Assembly: GCA_045657705.1 (NCBI GenBank)
Contig: JAZOTP010000045.1
Location: 9,539 to 73,538, forward strand
DNA from: Clostridia bacterium
GTDB taxonomy: Bacteria; Bacillota; Clostridia; UBA1381
Length of the DNA stretch: 64,000 nucleotides
Direction of reading: 5' to 3'
Position 1 is the stretch's first letter. Every line of letters starts with the position of its first letter. Positions 46,298 to 64,000 of this stretch are shown in pieces. The notes beneath the pieces were generated by a model, which was given only the letters and a program-made list of their open reading frames with translations, made no database searches and was not told where the DNA came from. The translations under genes were made by a program, and so were the position numbers.

Positions 46298-46310
46298 AAT
46301 TATATACCTC

Positions 46311-47207
46311 CTAATTACGGTTTCCTAAAATAATTCCCGATGAAATAAGTATAAATGCAATAAGATATTGAGGTTTTAAAATATCTTCACCAAGTAGAAC
46401 TGCACTGAATACGCAAGCAAAGAGCGGTTCTGAAAATTTAATTATAAACAGTTTGGAAAGGCTGCTGTTTTTAAGTACATAGTACCAGAGAATATAACCG
46501 GTAATTGATGCTGTACAGATATATGCAAATACCAAAAATGATTTTAAATTAAAGGTAAGCATATCCGCACCCATTGCATAAGCGCAGGCAACCAGCACTA
46601 TACCGCCGGTAAACTGCGACATGCCTGTAATCCGGAACGGTGAAGTTTGCTCTAACTTCAGCTTTGTGATTAAACTTGCAATTACTGTACATACAGATGC
46701 AAGGATTATAACTGTTTCGCCTACAGAAAAACTAAATCCTCCTGAACCGATATTTATAGCTATGATGCCGGTAAAGCCTATTAAAGCACCTATGATTTTA
46801 AGTACACTGAATTTTTCGCTCCTTATAAAAAGAAATGAAAAGCATACATAAAGCAATGTGCCGAGTTGTTTTATGATGGACGTCTTTGAACCGTCTGCCA
46901 GTGCTAAACCTATATATGTAAAAGTATAGTGAAGTACGATAGTGAACAGTCCGACGAGAAGTATATATTTAATATCTTTTTTGTCACCGGGCTTTTCTTT
47001 TTTTAAAATGCTGAAACCACCTACAAGTATTCCACATAGTGTAAAGCGAACTCCTGCAAACATTAGTATGTCGGGTATTGAGGATGAATCTATTTCAAAC
47101 ACCTGATACCCTATTTTGATAAATGGGAAGAGTGACCCCCAAAGTGCCATAACAATTAAAGCTAAAATTAATGATGTTATGTTTTGATTTTTTTTAGTTA
47201 TTTCCAT
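46311..47207 (-). CDS. DMT-superfamily (EamA-like) transporter
   Basis: Ten predicted TM helices in two EamA-like halves. Confidence 0.8.
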   Translation of the reverse strand: MEITKKNQNITSLILALIVMALWGSLFPFIKIGYQVFEIDSSSIPDILMFAGVRFTLCGILVGGFSILKKEKPGDKKDIKYILLVGLFTIVLHYTFTYIGLALADGSKTSIIKQLGTLLYVCFSFLFIRSEKFSVLKIIGALIGFTGIIAINIGSGGFSFSVGETVIILASVCTVIASLITKLKLEQTSPFRITGMSQFTGGIVLVACAYAMGADMLTFNLKSFLVFAYICTASITGYILWYYVLKNSSLSKLFIIKFSEPLFACVFSAVLLGEDILKPQYLIAFILISSGIILGNRN

Positions 47208-47265
47208 TTGTTTTCTCCTGTAAAAAATAGTTTGTATTCTCAGTAGCTAATGATTAACTTAATAA

Positions 47266-47901
47266 TCAAATTCCTATAGTATTTTCGGGAAGATTGAACA
47301 GTGCATTATAGTCAAGATTTTTAGCTTTTAAATTTAATGTATTTTCAATATGGGCTATAACATGATTTGTTATTGCTTCTGTTCCTTCTCTGGTATAATA
47401 ATGTGTTAAATCAGAGTGATACTCTACAGGTAAATTCACCATAAGAGAATATAAATCGTTTATCTCGCCGCCGAACTTTTTTACTATTTCGACTGCGGCA
47501 ACATTATATGCTTCGGTATCTTTATTATATCTTTTATGAGATGTAAACAATTCTTCCTGAACGGGTGTACTTGTTGCAAATATCATTTTTGCTTGAGGGA
47601 GAATAATTTTGATTAAATTGCATATTCTCTCAATATTGTTTTTATATTCGTCAAGAGAAACCAAATGCTTGCCGTCAAGCATGATAAGATCATCCCAAAG
47701 ACCGGCATTCCAGTGTATTAAATCAATATCATTCCCGCATTCTGTTTGGTTAACCCAATCTCGCAGATTTCTTATTATATATGAAGAAAATCTGCAGTTT
47801 TCTTGCGGATAATATACATTTGCAATATCCTCAAATGCCATTTTTACATATTTGTCATATCCTAATCTTATTGAATCGCCTATTAATAATATATTTTTCA
47901 T
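47266..47901 (-). CDS. SGNH/GDSL hydrolase
   Basis: LLIGDSIRLGY block I, a GLWD block and DLTHY block V. Confidence 0.75.
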   Translation of the reverse strand: MKNILLIGDSIRLGYDKYVKMAFEDIANVYYPQENCRFSSYIIRNLRDWVNQTECGNDIDLIHWNAGLWDDLIMLDGKHLVSLDEYKNNIERICNLIKIILPQAKMIFATSTPVQEELFTSHKRYNKDTEAYNVAAVEIVKKFGGEINDLYSLMVNLPVEYHSDLTHYYTREGTEAITNHVIAHIENTLNLKAKNLDYNALFNLPENTIGI

Positions 47902-47918
47902 AACTTGTAATTCCTTCT

Positions 47919-48779
47919 TTAAAATAAATAAGGCTTCCTGCCAGAACAGTTCATTTCTTTCAATATTAAAAAGCCTGAATTTTTATCGTTTATAATATCA
48001 GCGCTATAGCTGGCTGTAGTGATTGCAAGTATATCCATGTTCTGACCGCAAAATGCACAGCTTGTCGGTATTGTCGTCGGAACAGGGATATGTTCAACCA
48101 CCGACATTGAACAAGTATCAACAATAGCTACATGTCCTTTTCCCCAACAGCCAACATACAGATTATCATTGTTATCAATTGTAAAACCATCAACGCCCGG
48201 CACATTTAGTTCTCTGCCTGTAAAAGATATTTCACCGCTTATTTTATCAAAATTATATTCCTTTATAATCCGGGTATCGCTGTCTGTATGATAAAACCGT
48301 TTTTCATCAATCGACCATTCGAGTCCGTTGGATAAAATTAGATTATCCAATAAAACACGGACATTGCCGTTCTTGTCAATAGAATAGAGTTTGCCGTCTG
48401 TTTTATCCGAAACGCCTTTTCTTTTACCGCTTTGTGTTCCTACATAAATCCTGCCGTCGGGACCTACTTTCATATCATTGGCATATAAAATACTATATGC
48501 GGCGGTATTGTATAATTCTTCGGTGGTATCATCGTCTTTCAATATAAACACACCATCGGGGCGGGATACAATCAAACGATTTTCTTTATCAAATGCAAAG
48601 GCGGCAGCACCTGTTTTTAAAGATCTAACCTCAATTTTTTTTGTATCAATATCAAGCATACATATTTCGTTTCCGCCCATGCCATTTGTATAATATAAAC
48701 GGTTTTCGTACTGGTTCCATATAGGACCTTCTCCGATTATACATCTTTTGTCGGTTATAACTTTTATATCATTAAACAT
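47919..48779 (-). CDS. SMP-30/gluconolactonase/LRE-like beta-propeller protein
   Basis: IGEGPIWNQYENRLYYTN and repeated propeller blades. The ATG at 48779 lies 7 nt after an AGGAGC that overlaps the GRE stop. Confidence 0.8.
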   Translation of the reverse strand: MFNDIKVITDKRCIIGEGPIWNQYENRLYYTNGMGGNEICMLDIDTKKIEVRSLKTGAAAFAFDKENRLIVSRPDGVFILKDDDTTEELYNTAAYSILYANDMKVGPDGRIYVGTQSGKRKGVSDKTDGKLYSIDKNGNVRVLLDNLILSNGLEWSIDEKRFYHTDSDTRIIKEYNFDKISGEISFTGRELNVPGVDGFTIDNNDNLYVGCWGKGHVAIVDTCSMSVVEHIPVPTTIPTSCAFCGQNMDILAITTASYSADIINDKNSGFLILKEMNCSGRKPYLF

Positions 48780-48789
48780 AGTTTTGCTC

Positions 48790-51012
48790 CTATTGCAGGC
48801 TTTCTGCCTGCCGGATAAAGCCGTCCTGTTCAACCTTATTTATGTTATTCCAGAGCACGTTCCAGCCGCAGACTCTTATCTGCAAATCCTGATATTTTTC
48901 AGGATGTTTTTGTGCATCACGGAGCGTTTCGGCATCAAATACATTTATATGCATTGCGTGACCGCCACGTTTTATAAAGGTCATAAGTAATCCGTACATT
49001 GCATCTAATCCGTCATCTCCTTTAACTGCTGACGGAAGAAGTCCCAAATCAAGGCAGGCATCACCTGTAAATGCTGTTGCATCAATTTTTGTAACTGACA
49101 GGATTGCAGCAGTTGCACCCTCGCGGTTTTGTCCCATTGAAGCGGAACAGTTTTTTGAAAGCTCTTCACCTAATAATCTTCCGTTGGGCGATGCTGCTGT
49201 AACAGCTCCTTGTGTATATGACATTCTTGCTACATGAAAATTGCAGTTCCATTTTCCGCCTCTTTGTTTTGCGTTTGGTTTTCCGCATACATACGAGACA
49301 ACAAAATCTGAAATATCCTTAGCAAAGAAATCGGGTAAATCCTTATTGTTTCCGTATTTGTCCTTGTCATTGAAGAGTTGTTTTTGGAATTCTTCATATC
49401 CCTCAAAGTTTTTATCAAGAATATTCACAAATTCAGATAATGTAAGTATTTTTTTGTCATACACATATTTTTTTATTATTGTAAGTGAATCGGAAATATC
49501 TGCAATAAATCCAAAAGATATTACTGTGTTATTTGAGATTGCACCGCCGCCAAGAGCGTCTTTTGCCTTTTTGATACAGCTTGGATATGTAGCAGAAAGC
49601 ATAGACTGCGGATTGATATAGGTCAGGTAATCCTCATAACAGTTTACTATATCCATTGTACAGTCCACGATATAACATAACTGTTTTTTATATTCCTTAT
49701 AAAATTCTTCAAATGTTGCAAAACTTTCGGGTGCAGGACTTTTTAAGCCTGCGAAGTGTCCTGTTACTCCATCACAACCCTCATGGAGAGCGTATTCCAA
49801 TGGCTTTAGTAAATTCAGATAATTCATTCCGCAGCCCATTGAGCCCTGAGTTGAGTATTCATAACAACCTTTTACATTACAAAGTCTGGCCTGCTCTTCG
49901 GTAGCACCTGCATTAACAAGTGCTTTTCTGATTGTTGAGTCTGATACAAATACTATACAGTTATTTCCGCGGCGTATCATATCAAGAGCCTTTAGAGTGA
50001 AATCCTTTGGTGTACTGTCTGCAAGCTTAATCTGAATTTTAGGATTGTAAATCTTCATTTTGTCATATACATCTAAAAATAGATAAGAAAGTTCATTTAT
50101 TTCTGTTTCTTCATTTTCTTTACAACCTCCTAAAAATACAGGTTGATTCCAGTAATTTCCAATGGCTGTAAATTGAAGGAAAAAATAAGCAAGGTCAGTG
50201 CGGATTTCTTCTTCCGTAACACCGTTTTTAATATCGTCTAAATAAAACTTATAAAAAAGTCTGTCAAAATTTGAAAGTGAGCGCACCTGCAGTCCCTCAA
50301 TATGCTCTGAAATCATAAAATAAATATAATCAACGAGCAAGGCTTCATAAAAAGTGGATGGAGGATTGTTTTTTATATTTTTTAAAGCCTCTGCCATTCT
50401 TTCAGAACCGGAAGTTTTTTGTGCAAGGGAGGAAAGACGGTCAATAAAATCAATAATTGCTGTGTATGTAATTTTAATTCCCTCAAAAAATGCTTCTTCT
50501 TCGTTTGTAAGTTTTCTTGCCAAACGAGCATTTTGGCTTTCTTCAAGTAAGCCCGAAAAGCCTAAATCAAAAATTCTGTCCCAAACAGGTACACTGTGGT
50601 CGAAATCAGGCCACATGGTTACAATCCCCGCACTTTCAAAATAATTACGTTTTTCTCCTGTTTCGGGAATGATTTCACAAAAAACTTCATGACTCCATAA
50701 GTTAATTAATGTGGAGTTCAGTGGTCTGTCAATCATATTAATTGCAGGAAAACGGTCATGCATATCGCATGATATTTTTGTGTTTTCCAAAATGTATGAA
50801 AAAGCCTTTGCTTTTCGTATTGAGTGTGGCAAATCACTTATTTCTTTATCGTTTAATAAAATATTTTCTTTTATTTTTTCGCCGTCAATGCCTGTTTCAT
50901 CAGAGAAGATTTCATCTCTTCTCATAAATCTCTGAAAGCTGTTAAAAGGCTTTGACTGGTCATGGTATTTATTCATAATATACTCATAATCTGAATTTTT
51001 GATGTATTCCAT
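48790..51012 (-). CDS. glycyl radical enzyme of the C-x-E (1,2-eliminase-like) type, substrate unknown
   Basis: C-terminal glycyl-radical motif IRVCGWNV, a thiyl loop KGCYEYS (Cys-x-Glu), 740 aa. AGGAG lies 8 nt before the ATG. Confidence 0.9.
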   Translation of the reverse strand: MEYIKNSDYEYIMNKYHDQSKPFNSFQRFMRRDEIFSDETGIDGEKIKENILLNDKEISDLPHSIRKAKAFSYILENTKISCDMHDRFPAINMIDRPLNSTLINLWSHEVFCEIIPETGEKRNYFESAGIVTMWPDFDHSVPVWDRIFDLGFSGLLEESQNARLARKLTNEEEAFFEGIKITYTAIIDFIDRLSSLAQKTSGSERMAEALKNIKNNPPSTFYEALLVDYIYFMISEHIEGLQVRSLSNFDRLFYKFYLDDIKNGVTEEEIRTDLAYFFLQFTAIGNYWNQPVFLGGCKENEETEINELSYLFLDVYDKMKIYNPKIQIKLADSTPKDFTLKALDMIRRGNNCIVFVSDSTIRKALVNAGATEEQARLCNVKGCYEYSTQGSMGCGMNYLNLLKPLEYALHEGCDGVTGHFAGLKSPAPESFATFEEFYKEYKKQLCYIVDCTMDIVNCYEDYLTYINPQSMLSATYPSCIKKAKDALGGGAISNNTVISFGFIADISDSLTIIKKYVYDKKILTLSEFVNILDKNFEGYEEFQKQLFNDKDKYGNNKDLPDFFAKDISDFVVSYVCGKPNAKQRGGKWNCNFHVARMSYTQGAVTAASPNGRLLGEELSKNCSASMGQNREGATAAILSVTKIDATAFTGDACLDLGLLPSAVKGDDGLDAMYGLLMTFIKRGGHAMHINVFDAETLRDAQKHPEKYQDLQIRVCGWNVLWNNINKVEQDGFIRQAESLQ

Positions 51013-51133: not shown

Positions 51134-51922
51134 ATGAATGATAATTGGAAAAACGCAATAGTGACAAAAATTGCACTTGCAGTATATGTTGCACCGGGAA
51201 CGGGGAGCGATGTACATAACAACCGTCCTTTTCACGGATTGGTTATAAATACAGATAATTCGGTAAAGGAATATTTATTTTCTGACGGTACTGTTTTAAA
51301 AACAGAGTCATATGATGTTTTCTACCTACCTAAAGGTTCAAGCTACAAGGTAAATTCTTTGGTAAAAAGCGGATGCTATGCTATAAATTTTGATATGGCA
51401 CAACCGTTTTGCGATAAGCCGTTTGTAATCAGTTTCAGAAACAGTGAAAATATATTGAAGCTTTTTAAGGAATCGGAAAATATGTGGAGACAACAGTCAT
51501 CATTTTATAATGCGACTGTAATAAGGAATGTTTATGATATAATTTTACTGATGAACAGAGAAGTGCAGAAAAAATATATGCCGGGTGAGCATGAGATGAT
51601 TATACAGCCGGCTGTGGAAAAAATCAAAAATGAATTTACTAAAAGTGAACTTTCGGTAAAAGAGCTTGCTGATGTCTGCTCAATAAGTGAAGTATATTTT
51701 CGCAAGCTTTTTATAAACAAATTCGGAGTTACTCCTAAAGAATATATAATTATGATGCGTATTAATTATGCGAAGCAACTACTTGAGTCGGGTCAGTTTT
51801 CGGTAAGTGAGACGGCAGGTCTTTGCGGATATTTTGAACCATGTCATTTTTCAAGAGAGTTTGCAAAAAGAGAGGGAATTCCTCCTGCTAAGTATAAAAA
51901 GAAGAGTATTTTATTAAACTGA
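51134..51922 (+). CDS. AraC-family transcriptional regulator, divergent from the GRE operon
   Basis: N-terminal cupin-like domain and C-terminal double HTH (SVKELADVCSISEVYFRKLF...GYFEPCHFSREF). Confidence 0.88.
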   Translation: MNDNWKNAIVTKIALAVYVAPGTGSDVHNNRPFHGLVINTDNSVKEYLFSDGTVLKTESYDVFYLPKGSSYKVNSLVKSGCYAINFDMAQPFCDKPFVISFRNSENILKLFKESENMWRQQSSFYNATVIRNVYDIILLMNREVQKKYMPGEHEMIIQPAVEKIKNEFTKSELSVKELADVCSISEVYFRKLFINKFGVTPKEYIIMMRINYAKQLLESGQFSVSETAGLCGYFEPCHFSREFAKREGIPPAKYKKKSILLN

Positions 51923-51951
51923 GTATTTATACTCGCAAAAAATATATAAAC

Positions 51952-52008
51952 AGCCTCAACTGCAAAGGTTCTGTTACAGAAAGAACTTTGCGGATGAGGC
52001 TTTATTTA
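51952..52008 (+). terminator. long-stem intrinsic terminator after the AraC gene
   Basis: AGCCTCAACTGCAAAGGTTCT...AGAACTTTGCGGATGAGGCT followed by TTATTT. Confidence 0.7.
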
Positions 52009-52187
52009 TGTAAAATTTGACAACAACTCTAAATATTCAGCAGCAAAATTGACAGTGCAGTGTTTTTTTTCACTCTTGACTCTTAATATAAGCGTATTAA
52101 AGTCAACTAAATCTGGTTGTATTAAGAAGATTGCAGATACCAAAGCACAGACACATACCGCCGGACATTAACTAATGCGGTGATATT

Positions 52188-52612
52188 ATGAGTATTCAAA
52201 TTACATATACCGCGGACGGAGTAAAAATATATCCTCTTCATAGACATAAAAATTATGAAATTATGCTTTAGTTGTGGGGAACAGAGAATCTTAAAACTCC
52301 CGTGGAAGACTTGAGTCGACCCCCCCAAAAAAAAGTAAAACTTTGTATTGGAAAAGTTGAAAATATGAATTTCCGCATTAGAGGGTTGTTCTATTTGCTT
52401 TTAGACTCTGTTTTAAGTACAGACAAAGCTACAGAATCTACCCATGATATTGCCTTCAAAAAAGCTAAACTTCTGTTAAAAAAACCAGAAGATATTCCCA
52501 TAAGCCAAATTGCGCGTGAGTGCTCTGTCAGCGAAAGTGGACTGCGTAAAATTTTCGGTGATAAAATCGGAATGTCTCCAACGCAATTCAGATTAAAAGA
52601 AAAATTTAATCA
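52188..52612 (+). pseudogene. AraC-family regulator remnant with an in-frame TAG and 3' truncation
   Basis: MSIQITYTADGVKIYPLHRHKNYEIML then TAG (52269-52271), then the same frame continues to ISQIARECSVSESGLRKIFGDKIGMSPTQFRLKEKFNQ. The second HTH is missing, and beyond about 52612 the frame is antisense to the neighbouring gene. Confidence 0.8.
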
Positions 52613-53929
52613 AATGCGGATACTTTCTTTTTGCCAAGGATTTATACCATTTGCATTAAGGTTTGAAACCGCTTCACCATATGCAGAGCCATGCTCCGAA
52701 TGGAGAAGAGCAATGCCCGAATGCATTCTTTCGGAAAGTACAAGTTCAGTGGAGTAACGATTAAGCATAGGGAAAAGTTTTTTCTTTTCTTCTAACTCCA
52801 GCGAAGGAGTCCCATCATAGTGATAAAACCCGCAATTGTCAGGGATAGGAGTCCCTTCATACGGGTAGTCACCCTTCCATGCATAATAGCATATACCCTT
52901 AAATCCTGCTCCAAGTGTCATATAGGTTTGTGCATATATTTTTCTTGCGGGTGCTTTAACGCGGGCATCTGCCTCAATCATCCAAACACGTTCGCCCTTT
53001 ACTTCTGCCGCAGATGCTGCTGAGTCAAGAGCGTATAAAGCCGAATAAATGTCTGAACCCACTAAATTTATATAGTGTGTCAGGCCTAAAACATCCATAT
53101 CATCATCAAAATAACTCACTCCCATAGAAATAGGTTTGTTGCCTGCCTCCACACAGGTGTAGCAAGTATAAGTTTCAATTGCAGGAGCAGCTTCTTTTGC
53201 GAAAGCTGATGTTTTGTTTAAAAAGTCTGACAGTGCATTCATTGAAAATATTCTGAAACGAATCTATTCCTCTATACTATCCATATCCGTAGGCTTTTCA
53301 GACGGGGGAACGTAGCTTTCAGCTTCGTTTTCGGACATATATCCCTTTTCAACAAGCCACTTGCGATAAGCGTTAAGCGCCAGGGGGTGATAATCAAAAA
53401 CATCATTTCTCGGATAGTGAGGTTCATTATATATTTGGTATGATACTACAGCAGGAAATTGAGTAAAGTGCTTGGCAAGAGCCTTTGTAGCATCTCGGTC
53501 ATCCCTTAGTATCCCTTTGTGGTGTAAACAGAACTCAATAAAAACACTCCAAGCCTTTTTAGATTCTTCGCCTTTGTGATTTATCATTTCGTAACCCGTA
53601 TTGCCTCTTAAATTTGTAATATACCCGTTCAGACGAACACTCAGGGCAATGTTTCTTTTTTCACATTCATTTGCCATATCATCTATAAAGTGTGTGTTGG
53701 TTTTCACTTCGTTATTATCCAAAAAAACTTCTCCTAATGCCGCTGTGCGCAAAAAGTTAAAGCCCATTTGTTCCATCTGCTTTAAATCTTTTTTCATTTC
53801 CCAAAGTCTGTCTCCTTCGGGGGGAACGGGGAATTTAGCCGGATGGAAAGACGGGTAGTAAGATACCCCGAGTGCTAATTTCGGAATACCATTATCATAC
53901 AAAATTCCATTTTTCATTGTATACGACAT
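52610..53929 (-). pseudogene. clan GH-A (GH42-like beta-galactosidase) gene, frameshifted and 3'-truncated
   Basis: The two ORFs (53264-53929 and 52610-53242) are in different frames. The first carries YQIYNEPHYP (acid/base region) and the second VWMIEADA (nucleophile region). Only about 430 codons remain, against roughly 650 or more expected for GH42. Confidence 0.7.
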
Positions 53930-53940
53930 AATTTAACCTC

Positions 53941-54840
53941 CTATTTCAGTAAAAGAATTGCAATAAACGCAATACACATACCAATTATACATCGTTTAGT
54001 AATTTTTTCTTTAAAAAAGATGGCAGACATCAAAGCGCTTAAAATCAGACCGCCGGACTGATAAACCGGGTAAATTTGTGTTGCCAGCAGATATTTGGTG
54101 GCCAAAGCTTTGAAATATGAATTTAAAAACAGACAGACTGACATTGCAAAAATCACCAAAAAGGTTCCTTTAAAAAGATTCTTATATTGAACAGAAGCAT
54201 CCTTTCTGGAAAAACCGATAAAATATGCACCCAGCAAAATAGTGGCAGAAACGTATGTAATAAAGTTCAAAAGAGCCACACTGCCTTCTGAATAGTGAGT
54301 AAAAAGCTTTTGTGAAAAATCAAGTAAGCCGCTTGACAGACCGCAAAGGAAAAGGAAAATTGATGCAGTTTTTGTAAGTTTCCCTTTCGTGGTGTTGTTA
54401 TATGAAATCATGATTAAAATAGCAATTACCACAAGAATAACACCGAGCATTTGTAGGGCGGATGCCTTTTCACCGAAAAGAACAAAACTGAGAAGCAATG
54501 TAACAATAACACCAAACATTTGAGCAATACTGACTAACATAAAAGCTCCATATTTAATTGCTAAAAGCCAGGTTATCACAAATACCTATATACTTATTCC
54601 GGCAAGAATACCAAAAATAAGACCAGATGTATCCACCTTTACAGCTTGTTCTGTTATCAGAATACCAAACCCTATAAAAATACAAATCAGCATTCTTATT
54701 AAATTCATAAATACTGAACTGTTATAGTTTGAAGCGTGCTTGCTTAAAAGCTTCCCTAAAAAACCTTTTGTTGAGCCCGCAAGCAGAGAAATTAACACAA
54801 AACAGTAGCCCATAACATCACCTCCTTTATTGCACTGCAA
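53941..54840 (-). pseudogene. DMT/EamA-like sugar transporter split by a frameshift
   Basis: ORFs 54586-54840 (about 3 TM) and 53941-54579 (about 7 TM) together make one 10-TM protein but lie in different frames, 7 nt apart. Confidence 0.65.
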
Positions 54841-55691: not shown

Positions 55692-55770
55692 TATTTAGCT
55701 TGAGAATTCAATAGCTTTTGTCACATTTTAAGAATTCACTTAAACAGTAAAAATAACTTTTTACAAAGAA

Positions 55771-55962
55771 ATGCTCGCCCATAATTAATATAGGCGAGCA
55801 CTCTTTTATTTATTTTTCTCCGCCTCAGCTAACATATTCTCAATAAATATGCCGTATCCTCTGGTTGGATCATTCACAAACACGTGCGTTACAGCTCCCA
55901 CAATTCGGCCATTTTGAAGTATCGGCGAACCCGACAGGATTGATGTCAACATGGGACAACAA
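55771..55962 (-). repeat. spoIVB 3'-end fragment, copy 1 (last ~50 codons plus terminator hairpin)
   Basis: Encodes [51 protein letters not shown] then stop (55806), followed by hairpin GCTCGCC..GGCGAGC. There is no N-terminal S55 or PDZ part. Confidence 0.8.
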
Positions 55963-56153
55963 TTTTTTCTTATAACTTTTTCAAATTCAATCTGTTTTGT
56001 TGACAAAATTACCTATATAGATGATGAAATGAGTAAATTTGTCAACAGATTTTAGCTTCGGATTACAGGACTGCCTGACTGAATAACAGGAAAGCCGCAT
56101 ATCTTGTCCGTTGACTTTTATATTAAAATCGGATATGAAATTAATATCAAAGT

Positions 56154-56183
56154 AACAAAAAAGACAGGACTTTAATCCTGCCT
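56154..56183 (-). terminator. intrinsic terminator after the DUF4926 gene
   Basis: Minus strand GGCAGGA-TTAAAG-TCCTGTC followed by TTTTTTG. Confidence 0.65.
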
Positions 56184-56199
56184 TAATTGGTTTAGCAAC

Positions 56200-56385
56200 T
56201 TAGTATGACTGTACCAACTCTAATAACTCAATTGGTGTTGTAACAACATCAATGGTATCTCCTTTTTCATCAAAAAATTCAACCTCAAAGCATTTTCCGT
56301 CATATTCCAATACAATTGTTCCGGTCGTACCAGCCGTCAAATCGCTAAAGTCTCTTTTCAATCTTACAACATCTAATTCTTTCAT
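56200..56385 (-). CDS. DUF4926 family protein (putative immunity/antitoxin-like partner)
   Basis: MKELDVVRLKRDF...GTTGTIVLEY...FEVEFFDEKGDTI is a typical DUF4926 pattern. It starts 4 nt after the upstream stop. Confidence 0.7.
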   Translation of the reverse strand: MKELDVVRLKRDFSDLTAGTTGTIVLEYDGKCFEVEFFDEKGDTIDVVTTPIELLELVQSY

Positions 56386-56389
56386 AGTA

Positions 56390-56788
56390 TCAATCCTTCT
56401 TTCTCGGATATACCGTTACAATTTTATAGGTAACTCGTCCGTTATCTTTTTGAATAACAACCACTACATTTGCTTTAACTTTTCCACCGTTTTTGCCTAT
56501 AAGTTCTGTGTTATACGTATGTTTTGTTCCATACGGAGTGGTAGATGTTTTTGTTGGGGTTTTACCTTTTATAGATTCAACAACATTTTTATGAAAAATC
56601 TTTGAATCATTTTTGCCATACACCAATACATCTTTCATAAACTTTGCTTTCGGTCCGCCTTGAGGATGGTTTGAATTTAGCAAATATCCTTGTGTTTTCT
56701 TTTGGCTATATCTTACGTCGCCAGCTTTTGAAACAGGCGGATTACTTCCTTTTGTATTTGCATAATTCCCTGAAATTCCGGCACCCAT
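56390..56788 (-). CDS. DUF6883 family protein (putative toxin/adaptor-like partner)
   Basis: GYLLNSNHPQGGPKAKFM...YGTKHTY...VVVIQKDNG...KIVTVYP matches the DUF6883 pattern by eye. The ATG at 56788 overlaps the DUF4417 stop (TAATG). Confidence 0.6.
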   Translation of the reverse strand: MGAGISGNYANTKGSNPPVSKAGDVRYSQKKTQGYLLNSNHPQGGPKAKFMKDVLVYGKNDSKIFHKNVVESIKGKTPTKTSTTPYGTKHTYNTELIGKNGGKVKANVVVVIQKDNGRVTYKIVTVYPRKKD

Positions 56789-57459
56789 TAAGCAGACCTC
56801 CTTTTTTGAATGGAAGTCCAATCGGGATAGTGAACAAACTTTGCTCTATCCTTAACCTTTGTAAAAATACTGTCAGGCATACCACCATAAACAATTACAA
56901 CTTCGGGTTCGAGTTCTTCAAGCATTGCTTCTAAACCTTCGGCAAAATATATTTTGTTTTCTTTACTCTTTATACATCCGTAAGTGCCGATTGAAACAAT
57001 GCTGTGTTTTGGAACGCCTAAAAAAGCAAATTTTTCGGGTAGTTCTATGGTTGTGTAACTTCTTTCATCGCCCCAACGTATATTAGGAATAACATAAAGC
57101 CCCTTTGATTGAAGATAATGCCCAATTGCACGATTCATATATGTATTTGCAATCTGTAATACAAGTGGCATATCTCTGTAAAGTGAGCAATCAGGAGAAA
57201 TAACTCCTTGAAATTTCTTTAAGCAATCAAAATGTTCTTTTGCAGCAGTTAATACTGTTGCGAAATTTTTGTCGTGCTCATAGAAATGAACAAACTCATT
57301 GTAATTGTTACTGCGATTCTTTTTCGAAAAAGGAATTAACTCGGATGGTATAATTATCTTGTCCGATTTTTTAATGTGAGGGATTTCTAAAAGCCCATCA
57401 AAGAAAGCACCGCACACAAGTTCGGGATTAAACCCATCATCAATCTTATTTTTTAACAT
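56788..57459 (-). CDS. DUF4417 family protein (phage/mobile-element associated)
   Basis: AAAGGA lies 6 nt before the ATG at 57459. Has a FVHFYEHDKNF-type motif. Confidence 0.6.
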   Translation of the reverse strand: MLKNKIDDGFNPELVCGAFFDGLLEIPHIKKSDKIIIPSELIPFSKKNRSNNYNEFVHFYEHDKNFATVLTAAKEHFDCLKKFQGVISPDCSLYRDMPLVLQIANTYMNRAIGHYLQSKGLYVIPNIRWGDERSYTTIELPEKFAFLGVPKHSIVSIGTYGCIKSKENKIYFAEGLEAMLEELEPEVVIVYGGMPDSIFTKVKDRAKFVHYPDWTSIQKRRSA

Positions 57460-57533
57460 AATTAATCCTTTCTGCTGCTTTTTGTAGCTAAAAAATTTGA
57501 TTTTTTTACCTTGCCTGATTGACAAAGTGGAAA

Positions 57534-57582
57534 GGATATGTTAAAATATACATACGCTAATAGGTATATGTTTAACATATCC
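57534..57582. repeat. 18-19 bp inverted repeat (hairpin or operator)
   Basis: GGATATGTTAAAATATAC, a 12-nt spacer, then GTATATGTTTAACATATCC (one indel). It lies between the ImmA remnant and DUF4417. Confidence 0.6.
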
Positions 57583-57669
57583 AAGATTGAACACATGGAT
57601 TAGTTGCTGGTAACAACTTTTCTGATGTGTTTTTTCTTTTTTATCAAAACAATCATAAGCATCATCCTT

Positions 57670-58236
57670 TCAATCGTTCAAATAGTTAAGTAATTCTTTT
57701 TCATATTTCTTTTTAATGCGATACTTTATCCAATTTTGATAACTGTTAAATCGCCAGTATGCACATTCATCAGAAATATTAAAAACGACAGATATATCAC
57801 CAAAATCCTCACAATTATATTTTTGTATCAATGGTGAAGGGGCTAATGCATATTCGGCATAATGATTTGCAATTACTTCAGCAAGCTGACTTCCGTGTTT
57901 ATGCCCCATATCAATATGACCAATTTCGTGCATAATTGTAAATCTCTGTCGCTCAATACACTGTTCATCGTCATAGCAGATTACATGAGTTTGTTGATTT
58001 GGATCAAAATAGCTTGTGCCATCTTGTTCCTTATTTTTTAATAAAGCATAAGCCTCACTTTTTAAATTTGAATATGGGCGTACTATGTATCCTTATGCTT
58101 TTGTTATTTCAAAAGGATCTAAAGGTACAGAGTTTATATTGTGTCTAAAATAAAGTGATACTGCCTTTTCTTCGATAGCATCATACAGTTTTCTTGGCAA
58201 TATAAGATTTGTTAAATATTCTTGGTCTTTTCTCAT
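57670..58236 (-). pseudogene. ImmA/IrrE-family zinc metallopeptidase interrupted by an in-frame TAA
   Basis: The ATG at 58236 overlaps the XRE stop (ATGA). The frame reads MRKDQEYL...PFEITKA, then TAA (58093-58095), then GYIVRPYS...MHEIGHIDMGH (HExxH). Confidence 0.7.
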
Positions 58237-58538
58237 TTATCAAGAAGCAATTTCATCAACTTCATTTTTTCATCCGGTGTCATTGTAACTGTACTTCTTG
58301 ATACCAAATGATAAACCTCGTCAAAGGTATTGCTTTCACTCCTTCCGCTTATAAGATAATCTACGGTAGTATTTAATGCAGTTGCTAAATTAGCAACAAC
58401 TTCTATTTTCGGCTCTCGTTCATTTTTTAAATACCTACTCATAGCTGCCTCTGTAACACCAACCATTGATGCTAATTCCTTTTGTGAATACCCACTTTGT
58501 TTTAATAAGCTAAGTATCCTGTCTCCTATTTTTGTCAT
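58233..58538 (-). CDS. XRE-family helix-turn-helix regulator
   Basis: GYSQKELASMVGVTEAAMSRYLKNEREP HTH. AAAGGAGG RBS. Confidence 0.88.
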   Translation of the reverse strand: MTKIGDRILSLLKQSGYSQKELASMVGVTEAAMSRYLKNEREPKIEVVANLATALNTTVDYLISGRSESNTFDEVYHLVSRSTVTMTPDEKMKLMKLLLDK

Positions 58539-58562
58539 AGTATAACCTCCTTTATTACCAAT

Positions 58563-58591
58563 ATTATAACATTAAATTATAACTTTGTCAA
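58563..58591 (-). promoter_or_regulatory. consensus sigmaA promoter for the XRE/ImmA pair
   Basis: Minus strand has TTGACA, a 17-nt spacer and TATAAT, overlapping the 3' end of the upstream gene. Confidence 0.6.
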
Positions 58592-58968
58592 GTATTTTGT
58601 TTTAAATCTTTTAATGCATTTTCTCTATATCTGTTATACACATCTAAATTCATAATAACAAGCTCTGATACTCCGTTTTTTAATATATGTACAGCTTGTT
58701 TACTTTCTGCAACTTTTTTACTTACTTCACCTGTATTTTTTAAATCCTTGATATTTATAAATAAAGGGAAGTATTCTAAAACTTTATTAATATCAATTTC
58801 ACCATATAGCATATAAGGCTCAAAATATTTGTCATAAAAATCCGAATCCATAATAACCATTTCGGGTGTACTGTTACGCGTTACAAAAATTGGAATTTTA
58901 CATTCCTTACAATAATTTACTGTTGCTGTCGTATTTTTAAGAGTTGATAAAGGGATAAATTTTGTCAT
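58588..58968 (-). CDS. protein with two tandem Phd/YefM-like antitoxin-type domains
   Basis: The N-half (IPLSTLKNTTATV...IPIFVTRNSTPEMVIMDSDFYDKY) and C-half (IKDLKNTGEVSKKV...AVHILKNGVSELVIMNLDVYNRY) both fit the Phd/YefM pattern by eye. Confidence 0.5.
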   Translation of the reverse strand: MTKFIPLSTLKNTTATVNYCKECKIPIFVTRNSTPEMVIMDSDFYDKYFEPYMLYGEIDINKVLEYFPLFINIKDLKNTGEVSKKVAESKQAVHILKNGVSELVIMNLDVYNRYRENALKDLKQNT

Positions 58969-59007
58969 ATTTTTTCAGTTCCTTTCATATTTTATTTTTA
59001 TATTAAA

Positions 59008-59197
59008 ATGCCCGCCTATTATTTTATAGACGAGCATTTTTGCTACTTTATTTTTCTGCCTCTGCCAGCATGTTTTCTATAAATATCCCATAACCTCTCG
59101 TAGGATCGTTTACGAAAACATGAGTCACAGCTCCGATGAGTTTGCCATTCTGAACGATAGGACTACCGCTCAGGACTGATGTCACTAAGGGACAACA
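59008..59197 (-). repeat. spoIVB 3'-end fragment, copy 2
   Basis: Encodes [49 protein letters not shown] then stop (59048), followed by a hairpin with G:U pairs in the minus-strand RNA. Confidence 0.8.
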
Positions 59198-59210
59198 GGA
59201 TTTAAAAATA

Positions 59211-60767
59211 TTATTTTGTGAACTCGTTAGATTCACCTTTAATGACAACAGCTTTATTTCTATATTCCGGATTAGGATATCTTTCATCGTGATTAATGGA
59301 CACAGCATCTACACCTTCAATCTCCCGCATTGACTGACCGATATTACAGCCTGTGGATATCAGTTCCGATTGAAGTGCTTTTACATTTATTTCTCTTGGC
59401 GTGATATTTTCAGCAAGGGAAATACAGGTAGCAACCCCTGCCGCCTCTCCCATAGAAAGACAGCACAATATCAATCTCGCGCCGGACTGTGCATACACGT
59501 CAGACGAAAGATTTCTGCCTGCCGCCAAAAGATTTTCTACTTGCACCGGAAGCAAGCATCTGTATGGAATATCGTAACATCTGTTAGGCTCAAATTCTGC
59601 AAATTCTGCCCTTTGTCCTTTGACGTTAACAACCGGTTTCCCATCAGGAGGCGGAGTGGTGGTACCGAAGCCGCCTGAGTTACTGATGACATATTGAAGT
59701 TCGCCATTCAGCATAATGGGGGCCCATTTGATATTGCCCGTCTCCTCAAAATTATGTATATCGTATCCGTGGTTGGATATAGCAATAACATCATCGTGCT
59801 TGCGACAGAAGGCTATATCTTCTGCTGTCAATCGATATTCACCTACAATTCGTCGGCTTTCTCTGACTCCAAGCAAACTTGCCGTGGTGGTAAGAAAAGA
59901 GTTTTCAAAACCGGGAACTCTCTTTTTGATGTATTCCGCCAGCATAGTTGCTTGCTCTCTGCCTTCAAAATACATTCGGGTAAGATCTGCGTTATCAATC
60001 GGGAAGCACTTTCTAGAGTGCACAAAACAAATGCTGACCTCGTCCATACCACAGTGTTGAGGCCTGCCGGGGATGTGTGTAATCCAATTCAAATGATTGT
60101 CAGATTCAAATGGAAGAAGTCCGCTTGCAAGGTCTTCCTTAATCATTTTTGTCCAACGGCCATCGTTTTTCTTTAAATCCGAGTTTTGATAAGCCTCCCA
60201 GTTTACTCCGCCAAGAATGAACTCCAACGAACAAGCCTGGCTCATTCCATCCTCAGGGCGTCCGCTTTCGGTTTTGGCATCGGCATAATATGCAAGATCG
60301 GAGTCGCCTGTGGCATCGATAAACCGCTTGGCTGTTATATATTTTCTGCCTGTCTTTGTTTGTATAACAACGCCTTTTACAGTATCTCCATCCATCACTG
60401 CATCTACAATACTTGTAACAAGGAGCACCTCAACATTATACTTTTTTACCATTCTGTCAAGTACCAGCTTGTGCTTTTCTATATTGGTGTTTCTGTGCCA
60501 GTGTCCCTCAATCTTTTCCAATTCATCCATCATTTCTCTTCCTATTCCCGAAACGAAGTCAAGAGGAATGTTTACAAGCCCCATAGTTGCAAGACCGCCA
60601 AGGGCAGAGGTTGCTTCAATCAGCAATACCTTATAGCCTCTTTTTCCAACGGCAACAGCCGCACCAAAGCCCGCAACCCCGCCACCGGCTACAACAACGT
60701 CGTAATCGCCGTAAAACGGGATTTCTTTTACCTTTTCCATAATTTTTCCATTGTTAAAATCTATCAT
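59211..60767 (-). CDS. FAD-dependent oxidoreductase (FAD_oxidored/PF12831-like)
   Basis: [17 protein letters not shown] dinucleotide-binding motif. AAGGAG RBS. 518 aa. Confidence 0.8.
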
Positions 60768-60783
60768 TTTTATTTTCTCCTTT

Positions 60784-60969
60784 TTAAATTTCTATTTTTA
60801 TAATTGCCTCAGATGCGCAATTTTTTGCACACATTCCGCACCCAATGCATTTTTCCCGGTCAATGTGTGCACCATCTTTATCCATCGTAATTGCTGCCAC
60901 AGGACAGCTGTATTGACATTCCTGACAAAAGCAGCACCCAGCTTCAACGCTGTATTTTACCACAAACAT
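60784..60969 (-). CDS. small 2x[4Fe-4S] ferredoxin
   Basis: CxxCxxCxxxCP and CIGCGMCAKNC motifs. AGGAGG lies 2 nt before the ATG at 60969 and 8 nt before the GTG at 60963, so the start is probably the GTG. Confidence 0.75.
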   Translation of the reverse strand: MFVVKYSVEAGCCFCQECQYSCPVAAITMDKDGAHIDREKCIGCGMCAKNCASEAIIKIEI

Positions 60970-61105
60970 CACCTCCTTTGTAAAAGAGTATATCAAAATG
61001 TATAAAAAAAGCAATGGAGATATTTGACCAAAAATAGCATTATTTTTACCTTTCTATTGACATAAAAAACTTTTATGCTATAATTTTATCAAAGAGGGTG
61101 AGAGA

Positions 61106-61969
61106 ATGAATTTGGCGGAAGACATAACGTCTTTTATAAATGCTGTACGTACTTTGTGCAATGCAGGAATATGCTTTTATGACTTAAAGGATTTTTTTAA
61201 TTATGGCAGCTACGGGGAGAAGATGAACAAGGGTCATTATTGCTCATTTTGTAAAAAGGCACGCACTTTACCTATAGGTCGCCAAAAATGTGATGAAAGT
61301 GATAGGGAAAATGCTGTCTTGCTTGCAAAACAATACAAAAAACCCTTTTTCCACGAATGTCATCTTGGAATGAGAGAACTTGTTGTTCCCTTGATAGAAA
61401 ACGATGTGCTGATTGGCATTATTTTTGTTGGACAATGCAGATTAGATGAAAATTACGAAGCTACCATCTTTGAAAAGGCAAAAAAAATAACAAATGACCC
61501 ATCAGATATAGTTCGTCTTTATAACCAATTACCTGTTGTATCAAGAGAAATCATTACGAATGTGGGGGAAATTATTTTTCATTATTTTTCTACCCAAATT
61601 CAAAATATAGAACTCCTCTTCGGCGAATTAAGAAAGAAAGAATTTACAGGCACAAGTCTGGCAGACGGCATCCGTGATTTTATAGAATTAAATTTTCAAT
61701 CCCGAATATCCACAAAAGAAATAGCTCAGGTATTTCATGTAAATTTATCATATGCTTCGCGATGCTTCAGCAAAAAATTTGGCATCACAATAACGAATTT
61801 TATATTGCAAACACGTATAGATTATGCCAAATTGCTTTTGACACAGACAAAAGCATCCATAAACGACATATCGTTCAACGTTGGTTTTGAGGATAGTAAT
61901 TATTTTTCCAGACTGTTTAAAAAGAATGTCGGGTGCTCTCCCAAGCAATACCGAGAACAATTAAAATAA
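61106..61969 (+). CDS. PocR-sensor / AraC-family HTH transcriptional regulator
   Basis: N-terminal PocR-like domain (CSFCKK...FHECHLGMRELVVPL) and C-terminal AraC double HTH. Its promoter is TTGACA, a 16-nt spacer and TATAAT. Confidence 0.85.
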   Translation: MNLAEDITSFINAVRTLCNAGICFYDLKDFFNYGSYGEKMNKGHYCSFCKKARTLPIGRQKCDESDRENAVLLAKQYKKPFFHECHLGMRELVVPLIENDVLIGIIFVGQCRLDENYEATIFEKAKKITNDPSDIVRLYNQLPVVSREIITNVGEIIFHYFSTQIQNIELLFGELRKKEFTGTSLADGIRDFIELNFQSRISTKEIAQVFHVNLSYASRCFSKKFGITITNFILQTRIDYAKLLLTQTKASINDISFNVGFEDSNYFSRLFKKNVGCSPKQYREQLK

Positions 61970-62159
61970 TGCCCGCCTATTATTTTATAGACGAGCATTT
62001 TTGCTACTTTATTTTTTCTGCCTCTGCCAGCATGTTTTCTATAAATATCCCATAACTTCTCGTAGGATCGTTTACGAAAACATGAGTCACAGCTCCCACA
62101 ATTCGACCATTTTGCAGGATGGGCGAACCTGACACGACTGTTGTCAATGGGGGATAACA
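61968..62159 (-). repeat. spoIVB 3'-end fragment, copy 3 (chimeric)
   Basis: Encodes [51 protein letters not shown] then stop. Bases 61968-62096 nearly equal copy 2, while 62097-62159 resemble copy 1. Confidence 0.8.
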
Positions 62160-62164
62160 AAAGG

Positions 62165-63460
62165 TTATATGCTGATAGTCAAAGAATCTGTACCTTTTAC
62201 TAATGATTTACGGTATTCCTTTTCGTAAAATCCTTCAGCGTCAACAGTTATATCGTAATCTCCATAAAACCCGGAAAACTCAAATATACCGTTGCTGTCG
62301 GTTTCGGAAGTGATGCATGTATTCCATTTGCGTTTTATTAAATGTTCCAAGGTGTAGTAGGATTTCTTTTTACGCATATATTCATCGATCAGGCAACCGA
62401 GACAATCTCCCTCATTTTCCCAGGCATCTCCGTCCTTAAGATTCCAGTATATGATGCCTTGCATATTGGGAATGCTGAACCATAGCCTGTATAATTTTTC
62501 AAGGATTTCTGCCTGAAGATCTTCGCCTTCCTCCTTGTTTATCCCTTCATAAACCGAAGGAATGGTTATTTCGGATATATACATTGGAACACCGAGTGTG
62601 GACATCTGATGATATGTATTATAGATGTTTTCAAGACTTGCTTCTCCTGAAATGTGCCTTTCGATGCAACTTTTCCCATTAAAGAAATGGAACTGAAAAC
62701 CGATTGAATCAAGACGAATTCCTTCTTCGAGAAGTTTTTTGTTTTCATCATAATATTTCTTGGCATATTCGCCGTAGTTTACGTGCGTTGTTTCGTTTCG
62801 TTCCATGATACAATTAGCAGAAAAAATTTCTCCGGCTGTTTTAAGCATCCACTTAACAAAATCCTCTACGGGCATAGGAAGCCACGACATATTCTTCCAG
62901 CTTCCATTAGTCTGATAGGATTCATTTACAACATCAAACAGATAATATTTTCCGTCGTACCTTTTTGCAACCTCTTTTACATAGGAAATCCACTTTTCCT
63001 TAAGACTATCAATGTCCTGATGCACCCAGTCGGGAACCCAACGTCCGCAAAACAACGGCTGTCCTTTTGCTTTCATATTGTTTGCTTTTGCAAATTCCAG
63101 CACACGGTCTGACGGTGGTCTGCGATAGATTTCCTCACTGCCTTCTTCAAATCTGAATTTTCCGGGTTCTGTTTCCATTACGCCCCAACAAAAAGTTGTT
63201 GTTATTAAGTTGAACAAATTTGAAACAGCATCGCGATATTCGTGCTCTTTTTCGCCCATATCACCTATCATCAGTGCACTTGTACCAAAATCAAATGCGT
63301 GCTTTTTCTGTTCAACTTTAATTTTTGCTTGAACAGGCACACCTTCTTTGTTTATAACCTTGATTTTGAAGGTGCCTTTTCTGTATTTATCAATGTTCTC
63401 ATTAATCTCCGGCAACAATCTGTTAAAGGTTTCTCTGTAAATTCTGATTTTTTCTTTCAT
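62165..63460 (-). CDS. glycoside hydrolase family 10-like (endo-1,4-beta-xylanase-like), no signal peptide
   Basis: FDVVNESY (acid/base) and YISEITIPS (nucleophile) motifs. AGGAGG lies upstream of the ATG at 63460. Confidence 0.75.
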
Positions 63461-63470
63461 AACATCCTCC

Positions 63471-64000
63471 TTAAAGCGCAGTCTGGGTGTCATTAGGGTC
63501 GCCGTTTATTGCAAGATCATATTCAAGAGACCAATCGAGTCCACGATATTCCTCACCGCGAGGATCGTTTTTAATAAATTCCATAAGCATATCAAGCATT
63601 TCTGCCGTCCATGTGTTTCTGTCAATCTGTGCAGTAGTGAATTTATTCTGAGTAATCATCTCAAATCCGAATATATCTTTAACCTGAGTTTTTGATGCTC
63701 CGTCTACAACCTCTGCCACAAGATGACTTGGTATAAATAACACTCCACCGCCTGCACCGAATACAATATCTCCGGGCAGTACTATGGCATTGCCTATTCT
63801 TGTGGGTGTATTAAAGCCTGTCATGATAAAATCACGTATAGGTGTCGGGTCAATACCACGGTAATAAACCTGAACATCTTCAACCTTTTTCATCTGCTCA
63901 ACATCTCTTACCCCACCCCAAATTACACCTCCGCCGGTTTTGGTCTTAGTTTTTATGGCGGTAGTTAAATTTCCGCCTAAAAATGTGCCTTTATATATTT
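63471..64000 (-). CDS. RraA-family protein (RraA / 4-hydroxy-4-methyl-2-oxoglutarate aldolase-like), N-terminus beyond the window
   Basis: The frame stays open from 63893 to base 64000 (…GGNLTTAIKTKTKTGGGVIWGGVRDVEQM…). It has RraA-like GG...GxVxDGxxRD-type and GDIVFGAGGGV motifs. Confidence 0.7.
   Translation of the reverse strand, partial: IYKGTFLGGNLTTAIKTKTKTGGGVIWGGVRDVEQMKKVEDVQVYYRGIDPTPIRDFIMTGFNTPTRIGNAIVLPGDIVFGAGGGVLFIPSHLVAEVVDGASKTQVKDIFGFEMITQNKFTTAQIDRNTWTAEMLDMLMEFIKNDPRGEEYRGLDWSLEYDLAINGDPNDTQTAL

Follow-up and report, generated by a model that had tools for sequence, protein, structure and literature searches.

Why does a stretch of bacterial chromosome carry three ends of one sporulation gene and nothing of its beginning? 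The question is raised by a 64,000-nt stretch of DNA from a Clostridia bacterium (lineage UBA1381; assembly GCA_045657705.1, contig JAZOTP010000045.1), below called the window. Three direct copies of the 3′ end of spoIVB, which encodes the SpoIVB (S55) peptidase, all lie on its minus strand (units 1, 2 and 3 at 55762-55962, 59005-59198 and 61968-62160) and alternate with groups of unrelated genes, here called cassettes A, B and C. A sequence-only reading had located these repeats and had taken them for hybrid attachment sites that arose when elements inserted site-specifically into the 3′ end of spoIVB. The repeats were confirmed and their interpretation as hybrid sites was supported: the arm and the TG junction of the units match those of elements with large serine recombinases (LSRs). 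We propose that the units are attR-type junctions (P arm-TG-gene end) of a spoIVB-targeting family of LSR elements, since the same arm joins such elements to spoIVB at the same TG, and that the cassettes are probably inserts without a recombinase.

Three spoIVB gene ends

Each unit comprises the last 42-44 codons of spoIVB and a strong terminator hairpin with a U-run. The earlier count of about 50 codons was right about the S55 gene end, which runs to the stop; the first ~28 nt of each unit proved to be foreign. This stretch encodes the peptide C[CY]PxLT[ST]xx, where intact genes have GGIVQGM. Among the units, its changes sit on first codon positions, so that the stretch before SGSP is conserved as DNA and not as protein. 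The Pfam profile Peptidase_S55 matched copy 1 at profile positions 175-210 of 210 (E 5e-19) and copy 2 at 174-210 (E 1e-19), and copy 3 translates to a 43-residue spoIVB end. The hairpins, also predicted beforehand, stood out in all three units (-26.2, -19.4 and -17.6 kcal/mol in units 1, 2 and 3, with z of -7.6, -7.5 and -6.0 against shuffles). A search of the 64 kb for further parts of spoIVB, 5′ or 3′, found none besides the three units, in agreement with the observation that the upstream codons had left no trace.

Over the 28 codons compared, copies 1 and 2 show 20 nt differences, which fall in 19 codons and are all synonymous. The count is close to the ~19 positions previously found by hand and supports an origin of the two copies from different source alleles. 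Copy 2 also has a 1-nt deletion relative to copy 3, which makes its frame two codons shorter. The chimeric nature ascribed to copy 3 could be put in numbers: its distal part matches copy 2 at 126 of 129 positions (one substitution, two gap columns), and from the TG to the block GGAGCTGT it matches copy 1 at 30 of 36 positions, against 21 of 36 for copy 2. Copy 1 is probably the oldest end, displaced from the resident gene, because it is closest to the allele of the nearest relative (81.7% identity, compared with 79.2% and 77.1% for the other copies) and because its proximal part matches the intact spoIVB of two contigs of the same species (L174 and L175).

The P arm and the TG junction

The 5′ limit GGGA(C/T)AACA, which the units had been said to share, was found in all three and proved to be part of a 26-nt arm, TTGTTGTCCCnnnnTGACAnCAnnnn, followed by TG. 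The 38-nt motif TGTTRTCCC-N4-TGACANCA-N4-TG-N3-GG-N4-CC occurs three times in the window, where 0.00 occurrences are expected even with up to three mismatches. In all three units, and at all sites found with this pattern, the sequence switches from arm to spoIVB at the TG; the intact genes read GGNATG-TCN/AGY. The junction TG sits 26 nt inside the 5′ limit and ~36 nt upstream of the 8-nt block ACAGCTCC, at which the sequence-only reading had placed the switch point. A shift in similarity was indeed measured near that block, but as a recombinase crossover the block is ruled out, as the arm meets the gene at the TG directly after the 26-nt arm.

The arm appears to be under constraint. Between copies 1 and 2, only 5 of 28 arm positions differ, compared with 19 of 28 synonymous codons (Fisher p = 3e-4). 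Arm positions left free by the search pattern were also conserved in 23 unique cassette sites, whereas the upstream flank was not, and arm subtypes with covarying positions recur across genomes. Moreover, the arm was intact at five of the six sites found without using it (two in L034 and one each in L173, L176 and L177, the last three reached through a cargo protein of cassette A); only that of L008 was decayed.

Two other interpretations of the arm were dropped. A tyrosine-recombinase core, TGTTGTC-N7-GACAACA, could be read into the 5′ limit, but the arm stands beside serine recombinase genes and has its inverted partner, GGGACAACA, at the other end of the element. The TTGACA within the arm has no -10 box at 16-18 nt that would make it a -35 box, and a promoter scan did not rise above shuffles.

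Triple-LSR elements in spoIVB

The same arm lies on the IMG/VR contig L082/L083, where three LSR genes stand in tandem and the stop of the third is 18 nt before the arm; the products of these genes contain Resolvase, Recombinase, Zn_ribbon_recom and DUF4368 domains. Over 23 nt, the arms of L083 and of unit 1 of the window are identical at 22. In L083 the AT-rich arm is fused at the TG to a GC-rich spoIVB end of the host. Scanning metagenomes with the 38-nt pattern yielded 85 stretches, nearly all of which continue with SGSP…; with other loci and the window these make 92 sites. At 59 of the 92, a homologue of the third LSR (27-100% identity) ends 6-30 nt, rarely up to 88 nt, before the arm, and at four further sites the LSR triplet lies slightly further upstream. 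Overall, about 63 metagenomic or viral contigs have the arm 6-105 nt past the last of three tandem LSR genes. An unrecognised kind of mobilising machinery had been one of the possibilities raised; this idea was not borne out, as the arm is that of elements with three tandem LSR genes.

Contig L127 contains both ends of an 8.7-kb element that splits spoIVB. At the left end, spoIVB codons 111-377 run to …GGIVQGM and are followed by TG and TGAGTGATATATAATAGGGACAACA. The genes of the element encode ParA, ParB, an AAA ATPase and three LSRs, after which come the P arm, TG and SGSP…. The attP deduced from attL and attR of L127 is TGTTGTCCCATATTGACATCAACCG-TG-TGAGTGATATATAATAGGGACAACA, a 53-bp site with inverted outer arms of the form TGTTGTCCC-N17-TG-N16-GGGACAACA. 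Inverted outer arms around a central dinucleotide are the usual anatomy of serine-integrase sites. By this comparison the GGGA(C/T)AACA limit resolves as the outer arm of the P half-site of the attP of triple-LSR elements. Judging from the junctions, the target of the LSR family is the TG of the Met codon that directly precedes the catalytic serine of SpoIVB, Ser378 (PMC6581720), and the autonomous members of the family split the gene without supplying a gene end.

We also made several observations on the elements themselves. Those of L127 (928-10546, oriented to the minus strand), L083, L086-L170 and GenBank MT836038.1 occur in GC-rich human-gut bacteria and split the gene right before the catalytic serine codon. 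The entry MT836038.1 was considered as a free or circular element and proved to be an integrated copy. The ATPase of L127 belongs to AAA_14/DUF4143. Copies of the third LSR with ~92% identity adjoin at least four different host spoIVB alleles. In a divergent LSR subfamily (L093 7445-7680, L095, L096; L172 5520-5650), a second site, of the type x-TG-P′ (GTGTGAGTAATAATAGGGACAACA), follows the last LSR gene and precedes the terminal arm, at a distance of 70-170 nt; it may represent a miniature element nested there or a tandem junction resembling attP. In L172, spoIVB does not adjoin the outer site.

Cassettes that restore the gene end

The layout of gene end with terminator, convergent AraC gene, co-directional operon and arm recurs without a recombinase gene in L034, L008, L089, L104, L120, L151, L160, L100, L119, L168, L145 and others, with two cassette-type sites each in L034 and L151. 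The cargo is joined tightly to the arm (2-64 nt) and is unrelated from case to case: glycyl-radical enzyme, EamA, histidine phosphatase, GH10, SIS, cupin, AIPR and BNR genes were all found, and L120 holds an AraC and GH10 cassette in the same type of position as cassette C of the window. A conserved AraC backbone common to the cassettes was ruled out, because the regulators are only 22-36% identical to one another, which indicates that they are specific to the cargo.

The sequence-only reading had held that each insert carries a replacement gene end. In support of this, an intact spoIVB is followed by cargo in six contigs (L104, L120, L008, L174, L175 and L182), and in the first three a displaced spoIVB fragment is also visible beyond the cargo. 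Since the intact gene heads the array in these three, the inserted unit brings a working gene end. Among related metagenome-assembled genomes (MAGs) found via Spo0A, L034 has two intact motif sites and a truncated relic next to spo0A, and L008 has an intact spoIVB, a glycyl-radical enzyme cassette and then a decayed site.

Empty sites exist among relatives, where an unoccupied site had been called for: usable upstream sequence of 1.5 kb or more was available for 71 related species, and in 13 of these an intact spoIVB lies less than 600 nt from spo0A. In the other 58 we found only a truncated relic (one, L034), genes in between (nine) or no spoIVB within 10 kb or less (48). We encountered neither an intact spoIVB with an unrelated 3′ end, nor the three-copy arrangement unchanged in distant relatives, nor signs that the unit belongs to a different, commonly repeated gene family.

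Among the pattern-derived loci, a search for shared cargo in different flanks turned up only orthologous pairs. Contexts of cassette A within the species came from a look-up with its helix-turn-helix (HTH) protein, recorded in 33 blocks of the collection. Four left contexts were seen. Cassette A stands directly after an intact 415-aa spoIVB in L174, L175 and L182; the last extends to the head of the locus as well, where a polysaccharide deacetylase gene lies in divergent orientation. In the window it follows cassette B and the arm of unit 2; in L176, an unrelated open reading frame (ORF) with a different arm subtype; and in L173 and L177, from two samples, its own last gene, a spacer and an arm. 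The B-TG-X site of L175 and the P-TG-X site of L177 carry a gene-end allele X that is almost identical in the two from one end to the other, as would be expected of exchange at the TG. The contigs with spoIVB directly before cassette A match the state that would be predicted before cassettes B and C arrived, and the decayed M78 gene of the window fits cassette A being the older insert. Together, the comparisons support serial insertion with replacement gene ends as the likely history of the locus.

Proposed mechanism and alternatives

The best explanation, which we regard as probable, is that recombinase-less cassettes bounded by attR-type junctions of the LSR family were stacked serially in spoIVB, each with a spare gene end and with LSRs acting in trans. 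A cassette would then consist of the TG with the last 42-44 spoIVB codons and the terminator, the cargo (often a convergent AraC gene and a co-directional operon) and the 26-nt P arm. Each insertion would hit the live spoIVB, which would remain whole because the incoming cassette supplies a fresh gene end. The former end would be pushed downstream as an orphan, now preceded by the P arm of the incoming cassette, and its terminator would come to end a cargo operon. Three or more rounds would give the order cassette C, unit 3, cassette B, unit 2, cassette A, unit 1, 11 kb and spo0A, with the youngest cassette nearest to the 5′ part of spoIVB, which would lie beyond the window. Recombination of P-TG-B′ with B-TG-B′ by LSRs in trans would regenerate the same two site types, and later homologous exchange between the ~190-nt repeats would account for the mosaic copy 3. 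From the constraint on the arm and its preservation at five of the six independently found sites, we infer that LSRs supplied in trans act, or acted until recently, on the cassettes through this reaction.

Several findings weigh against this explanation. As the sequence-only reading had noted for the cassettes, no LSR gene was detected in the window by tblastn; none was present within the available context of any recombinase-less locus either, so the units would be non-autonomous derivatives and not autonomous members. The inverted P′ arm GGGACAACA was not found in the cassettes or in the window, and no free attP or circular element was found in IMG/VR. To our knowledge, canonical single LSRs do not normally recombine an attR-type site with attB. 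The cassette-rich metagenome JAEIGA01 gave nine cassette-type or undetermined contigs and zero LSR-linked sites with the pattern. The junction of L173 and L177 could be a circular form or equally an A-A tandem. Gene ends have also been exchanged elsewhere than at the TG. The pairs of L104 and L120 are identical for 54 and 88 nt after the TG and then diverge, and copy 2 of the window differs from the gene ends attached to cassette A in L174 and L175, the terminator and cargo being 93-96% identical. Such shuffling beyond TG crossovers means that homologous recombination is clearly active and could explain some of the rearrangements.

How much, then, could homologous recombination explain by itself? 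One or a few ancient LSR insertions may have made the combination of P arm, gene end and terminator, after which only homologous recombination within and between strains would have acted, with the arm as a passive passenger. The exchange points of the mosaics lie away from the TG (copy 2 versus copy 3; L173 and L176, which share the distal part of the gene end, differ in the proximal part and thus switch near the same block), and copy 3 and similar switches are best read as the outcome of frequent homologous exchange between the ~190-nt repeats, or of gene conversion, superimposed on site-specific events. The identity tracts of L104 and L120 and the lack of a recombinase gene near any array point the same way, and the L173 and L177 junction could be a product of loop-out or unequal exchange. 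Nevertheless, a passive arm is hard to reconcile with its being far better kept than the adjoining synonymous sites, with its intact state at most sites found without it, and with covarying subtypes that recur across genomes. Many unrelated cargos end 2-18 nt from the arm, which homologous exchange alone would hardly achieve, and it offers no account of how new cargo first enters between gene end and arm. We therefore regard a purely homologous history as unlikely.

We give still less credence to the idea that the three cassettes are complete LSR elements that decayed, deletions having removed the left end and the recombinase genes of each. The same arm does occur on autonomous elements, and the repressor and protease pair of cassette A, with its peptidase gene decayed in the window, is typical of mobile-element control. 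Yet tblastn and short-word blastn revealed no LSR remnant beside any arm of the window, that of unit 1 included, no P′ arm is left, and cargo genes run intact to within 5 and 13 nt of the arm. Furthermore, an autonomous element interrupts spoIVB and supplies no gene end, so serial insertion of such elements cannot yield three extra 3′ ends. Finally, short-read assemblies do break at such repeats (L001, L178), but an origin of the units by chance similarity, local duplication or misassembly has a negligible probability: chance would place the 38-nt pattern in the window 0.00 times, synonymous differences separate the copies at 19 codons, and the same architecture recurs in independent MAGs and metagenomes, a recurrence that refutes this origin.

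Serial stacking by LSRs in trans may be part of a broader arrangement, which we put forward tentatively and with more doubt than confidence: the spoIVB end of gut Clostridia might be a serine-recombinase cassette platform, at which hybrid-site cassettes recombine reversibly with the live gene through circles, L173 and L177 being candidates. As substrates and products would be of the same site types, no directionality factor would be needed. If so, AraC-controlled catabolic operons and defence modules would be carried without ever inactivating a forespore-expressed protease, and the locus would be a functional serine-recombinase analogue of the integron.

Comparison with known systems

The closest functional analogue of the window cassettes is the staphylococcal cassette chromosome (SCC, including SCCmec), together with the Enterococcus cassette chromosome, inserted by CcrAB at the 3′ region of rlmH. 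There a serine recombinase inserts near the 3′ end of a conserved gene whose function is kept, as proposed for the window cassettes, and in both cases direct repeats mark the boundaries. SCC elements form tandem composite arrays, with members that have no recombinase genes. The restored frame, boundary direct repeats and tandem arrays with recombinase-less members were all found in the window cassettes or their relatives. The target is different: the site lies in spoIVB, at the codon of the catalytic serine and ~43 codons before the stop, so that ~190 nt of gene end and terminator are duplicated, versus ~50 bp in SCC. Unlike SCC, the related autonomous elements carry three LSR genes (with DUF4368 tails) and split the gene, and the site of the window cassettes is a hybrid P-TG-B′ that lacks a P′ arm. 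The likeness is functional only; we claim no homology to Ccr or rlmH and do not class the cassettes as SCC. Variable cargo has a parallel in the Enterococcus cassette chromosome elements, whose highly variable content includes carbohydrate genes (PMC6222049).

The autonomous elements resemble other systems. Triplet serine-integrase modules of streptococcal integrative and conjugative elements insert in, and disrupt, mutT, traG and hsdM (PMC4701971). Similarly, L083 and L127 have three tandem serine integrase genes at the end of the element and disrupt a coding gene; the target here is a sporulation gene, the complete example has 8.7 kb with ParA and ParB and no conjugation genes were seen in it, and the window holds only recombinase-less derivatives. 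As a serine-recombinase element in a sporulation coding sequence, L127 is also comparable to the gene-intervening elements skin (in sigK), SPbeta (in spsM), vfbin, vrin, gin and yin (PMC4191935, PMC5595907, PMC10747680). The known ones sit in genes of the mother cell (PMC4191935), the only cell in which they are excised. SpoIVB signals from the forespore (PMC6242693, PMC6581720), so excision confined to the mother cell, as for skin and SPbeta, would not rescue a split spoIVB. The gene is split in L127 but not by the cassettes, ahead of which it is intact in all six contigs named above; they replace the end of spoIVB and do not interrupt it.

In accretions of cis-mobilisable and integrative mobilisable elements, and in integron arrays, non-autonomous cassettes are stacked at one site, with a recombinase presumed to act in trans. 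The window cassettes are likewise bounded by recombination sites and stacked at one chromosomal site. They differ in their presumed reliance on a serine and not a tyrosine recombinase, in having their own regulators and promoter regions and in lacking an attC-like hairpin; the platform gene is a housekeeping developmental protease and not an integrase gene with attI, as in integrons. A search for IntI, attI and attC features found none; what the cassettes carry are AraC regulators and promoter regions of their own. In the searchable literature, we found no paper that pairs spoIVB with attB or with serine recombinases.

An odd repeat is thus linked to a widespread triple-LSR family for which both the 53-bp attP and the target, the codon of the catalytic serine in spoIVB, are defined. 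Two lifestyles would meet at this one site, as autonomous elements break a forespore-expressed gene and recombinase-less cassettes preserve it, and the contrast makes a testable case of non-autonomous cargo cassettes exploiting serine recombinases. The locus is also a hotspot of turnover of catabolic and defence genes beside the master sporulation regulator spo0A. If hybrid P-B′ sites do recombine with attB, this would bear on the directionality rules of the serine integrases used in genome engineering.

Cargo of the window and the stretch to spo0A

The features of the window are given in Table 1. Cassette B also holds a small ferredoxin ORF. In cassette A, PADLOC recognised the CapH-like HTH and the CapP-like M78 peptidase with E of 3e-11 and 3e-9, and the cassette looks like a defence island; its intact counterpart lies at 282-3339 of L173, the M78 gene being decayed in the window. 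The short distances previously reported between cargo and arm were reproduced: the stop of the GH10 gene (62165) lies 5 nt and that of the FAD oxidoreductase gene (59211) 13 nt from the arm. The defence-like module of cassette A ends ~240 nt from its arm. The position given earlier for spo0A was verified with the Spo0A_C profile. Among GTDB species representatives, the best match to this Spo0A is 86% identical.

Table 1. Features of the locus, by position in the window
Feature	Position	Strand	Basis or remark
Cassette C cargo, cut by the window end: GH10 glycosidase (62165-63493) and 140-aa ORF (63471-63893)	62161-64000	-	Profile search
P arm, unit 3 (TTGTTATCCCCCATTGACAACAGTCG)	62135-62160	-	Closes cassette C; 38-nt pattern match; same arm beside LSR genes elsewhere
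TG, inferred crossover dinucleotide, unit 3	62133-62134	-	TG of the Met codon before SGSP in intact spoIVB; attL/attR/intact-gene comparison
spoIVB 3′ end, copy 3 (SGSP…AEAEKIK + stop)	62004-62132	-	Mosaic measured
Terminator hairpin, unit 3	61968-61999	-	-17.6 kcal/mol, z -6.0
Cassette B cargo	59199-61967	mixed	Pfam
Cassette B: PocR/AraC regulator	61106-61969	+	Pfam
Cassette B: FAD-dependent oxidoreductase	59211-60767	-	Pfam
P arm, unit 2 (CTGTTGTCCCTTAGTGACATCAGTCC)	59173-59198	-	Closes cassette B; pattern match
TG, inferred crossover dinucleotide, unit 2	59171-59172	-	attL/attR/intact-gene comparison
spoIVB 3′ end, copy 2 (SGSP…AEAEK + stop)	59048-59170	-	Pfam, translation
Terminator hairpin, unit 2	59005-59040	-	-19.4 kcal/mol, z -7.5
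Cassette A cargo	55963-59004	-	Profile searches; intact version in L173
Cassette A: Phd-like antitoxin	58588-58968	-	
Cassette A: Xre/CapH-like HTH	58233-58538	-	PADLOC
Cassette A: decayed M78/CapP-like peptidase, 87-aa ORF	57670-57933	-	PADLOC
Cassette A: DUF4417	56788-57525	-	PHROG nuclease family match, E 7e-43
Cassette A: DUF6883	56390-56821	-	
Cassette A: DUF4926	56200-56385	-	
P arm, unit 1 (TTGTTGTCCCATGTTGACATCAATCC)	55937-55962	-	Closes cassette A; 22/23 identical to the L083 arm beside LSR genes
TG, inferred crossover dinucleotide, unit 1	55935-55936	-	attL/attR/intact-gene comparison
spoIVB 3′ end, copy 1 (SGSP…AEAEKNK + stop)	55806-55934	-	Pfam
Terminator hairpin, unit 1	55764-55803	-	-26.2 kcal/mol, z -7.6
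spo0A, conserved downstream neighbour of spoIVB, locus anchor	43671-44450	-	Spo0A_C, E 2.8e-46

The ~11 kb between unit 1 and spo0A contain genes for a glycyl-radical enzyme and its activase, transporters, esterases and AraC regulators, several of which seem truncated; a search of this stretch for relics of the arm or of spoIVB found none. Truncated-looking ORFs gather at 51900-54600, among them a GH42-like ORF of 221 aa whose match extends no further than position ~160 of the 376-position profile, a 212-aa EamA ORF and a C-terminal AraC fragment of 161 aa. They may be older, eroded cassettes. Operons of glycyl-radical enzyme and activase recur as cargo of the locus (window 44715-51012, L034 1218-4177, L008 3871-7409 and L089). 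That of the window ends 265 nt from spo0A, directly upstream of a conserved Spo0A-box-like promoter region, and no gene fragment follows it.

Exact-protein look-ups meant to extend the contig past 64 kb gave no match for 10 of 12 window proteins, including those of GH10, Spo0A, the 140-aa ORF, two AraC regulators, DUF4417, DUF4926 and Phd. Short-read contigs of this species stop at the repeats or slightly within them. The Logan contig L001 (SRR27608105) is 99% identical to cassette B, runs from 5 nt past the stop of the FAD oxidoreductase gene into the middle of unit 3 and is broken at the repeat on either side; L178 (ERR11635919) begins at the GGAGCTGT block. Published short-read assemblies will systematically fragment such arrays at the repeats.

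Two further observations concern the related loci. The MAG CAKSJF01 yielded three contigs (L009, L010 and L012), each with a spo0A homologue 66-68% identical to that of the window, which suggests a mixed bin or paralogues. The spoIVB fragments at L008 7447-7524 and L034 9716-9784 and the second fragment of L151 share the same His-to-Tyr change in the THV motif (TYVF), which corresponds to the C-terminal PDZ-recognition motif Thr393-His-Val395 of SpoIVB (PMC6581720); the shared change may reflect common descent or relaxed selection.

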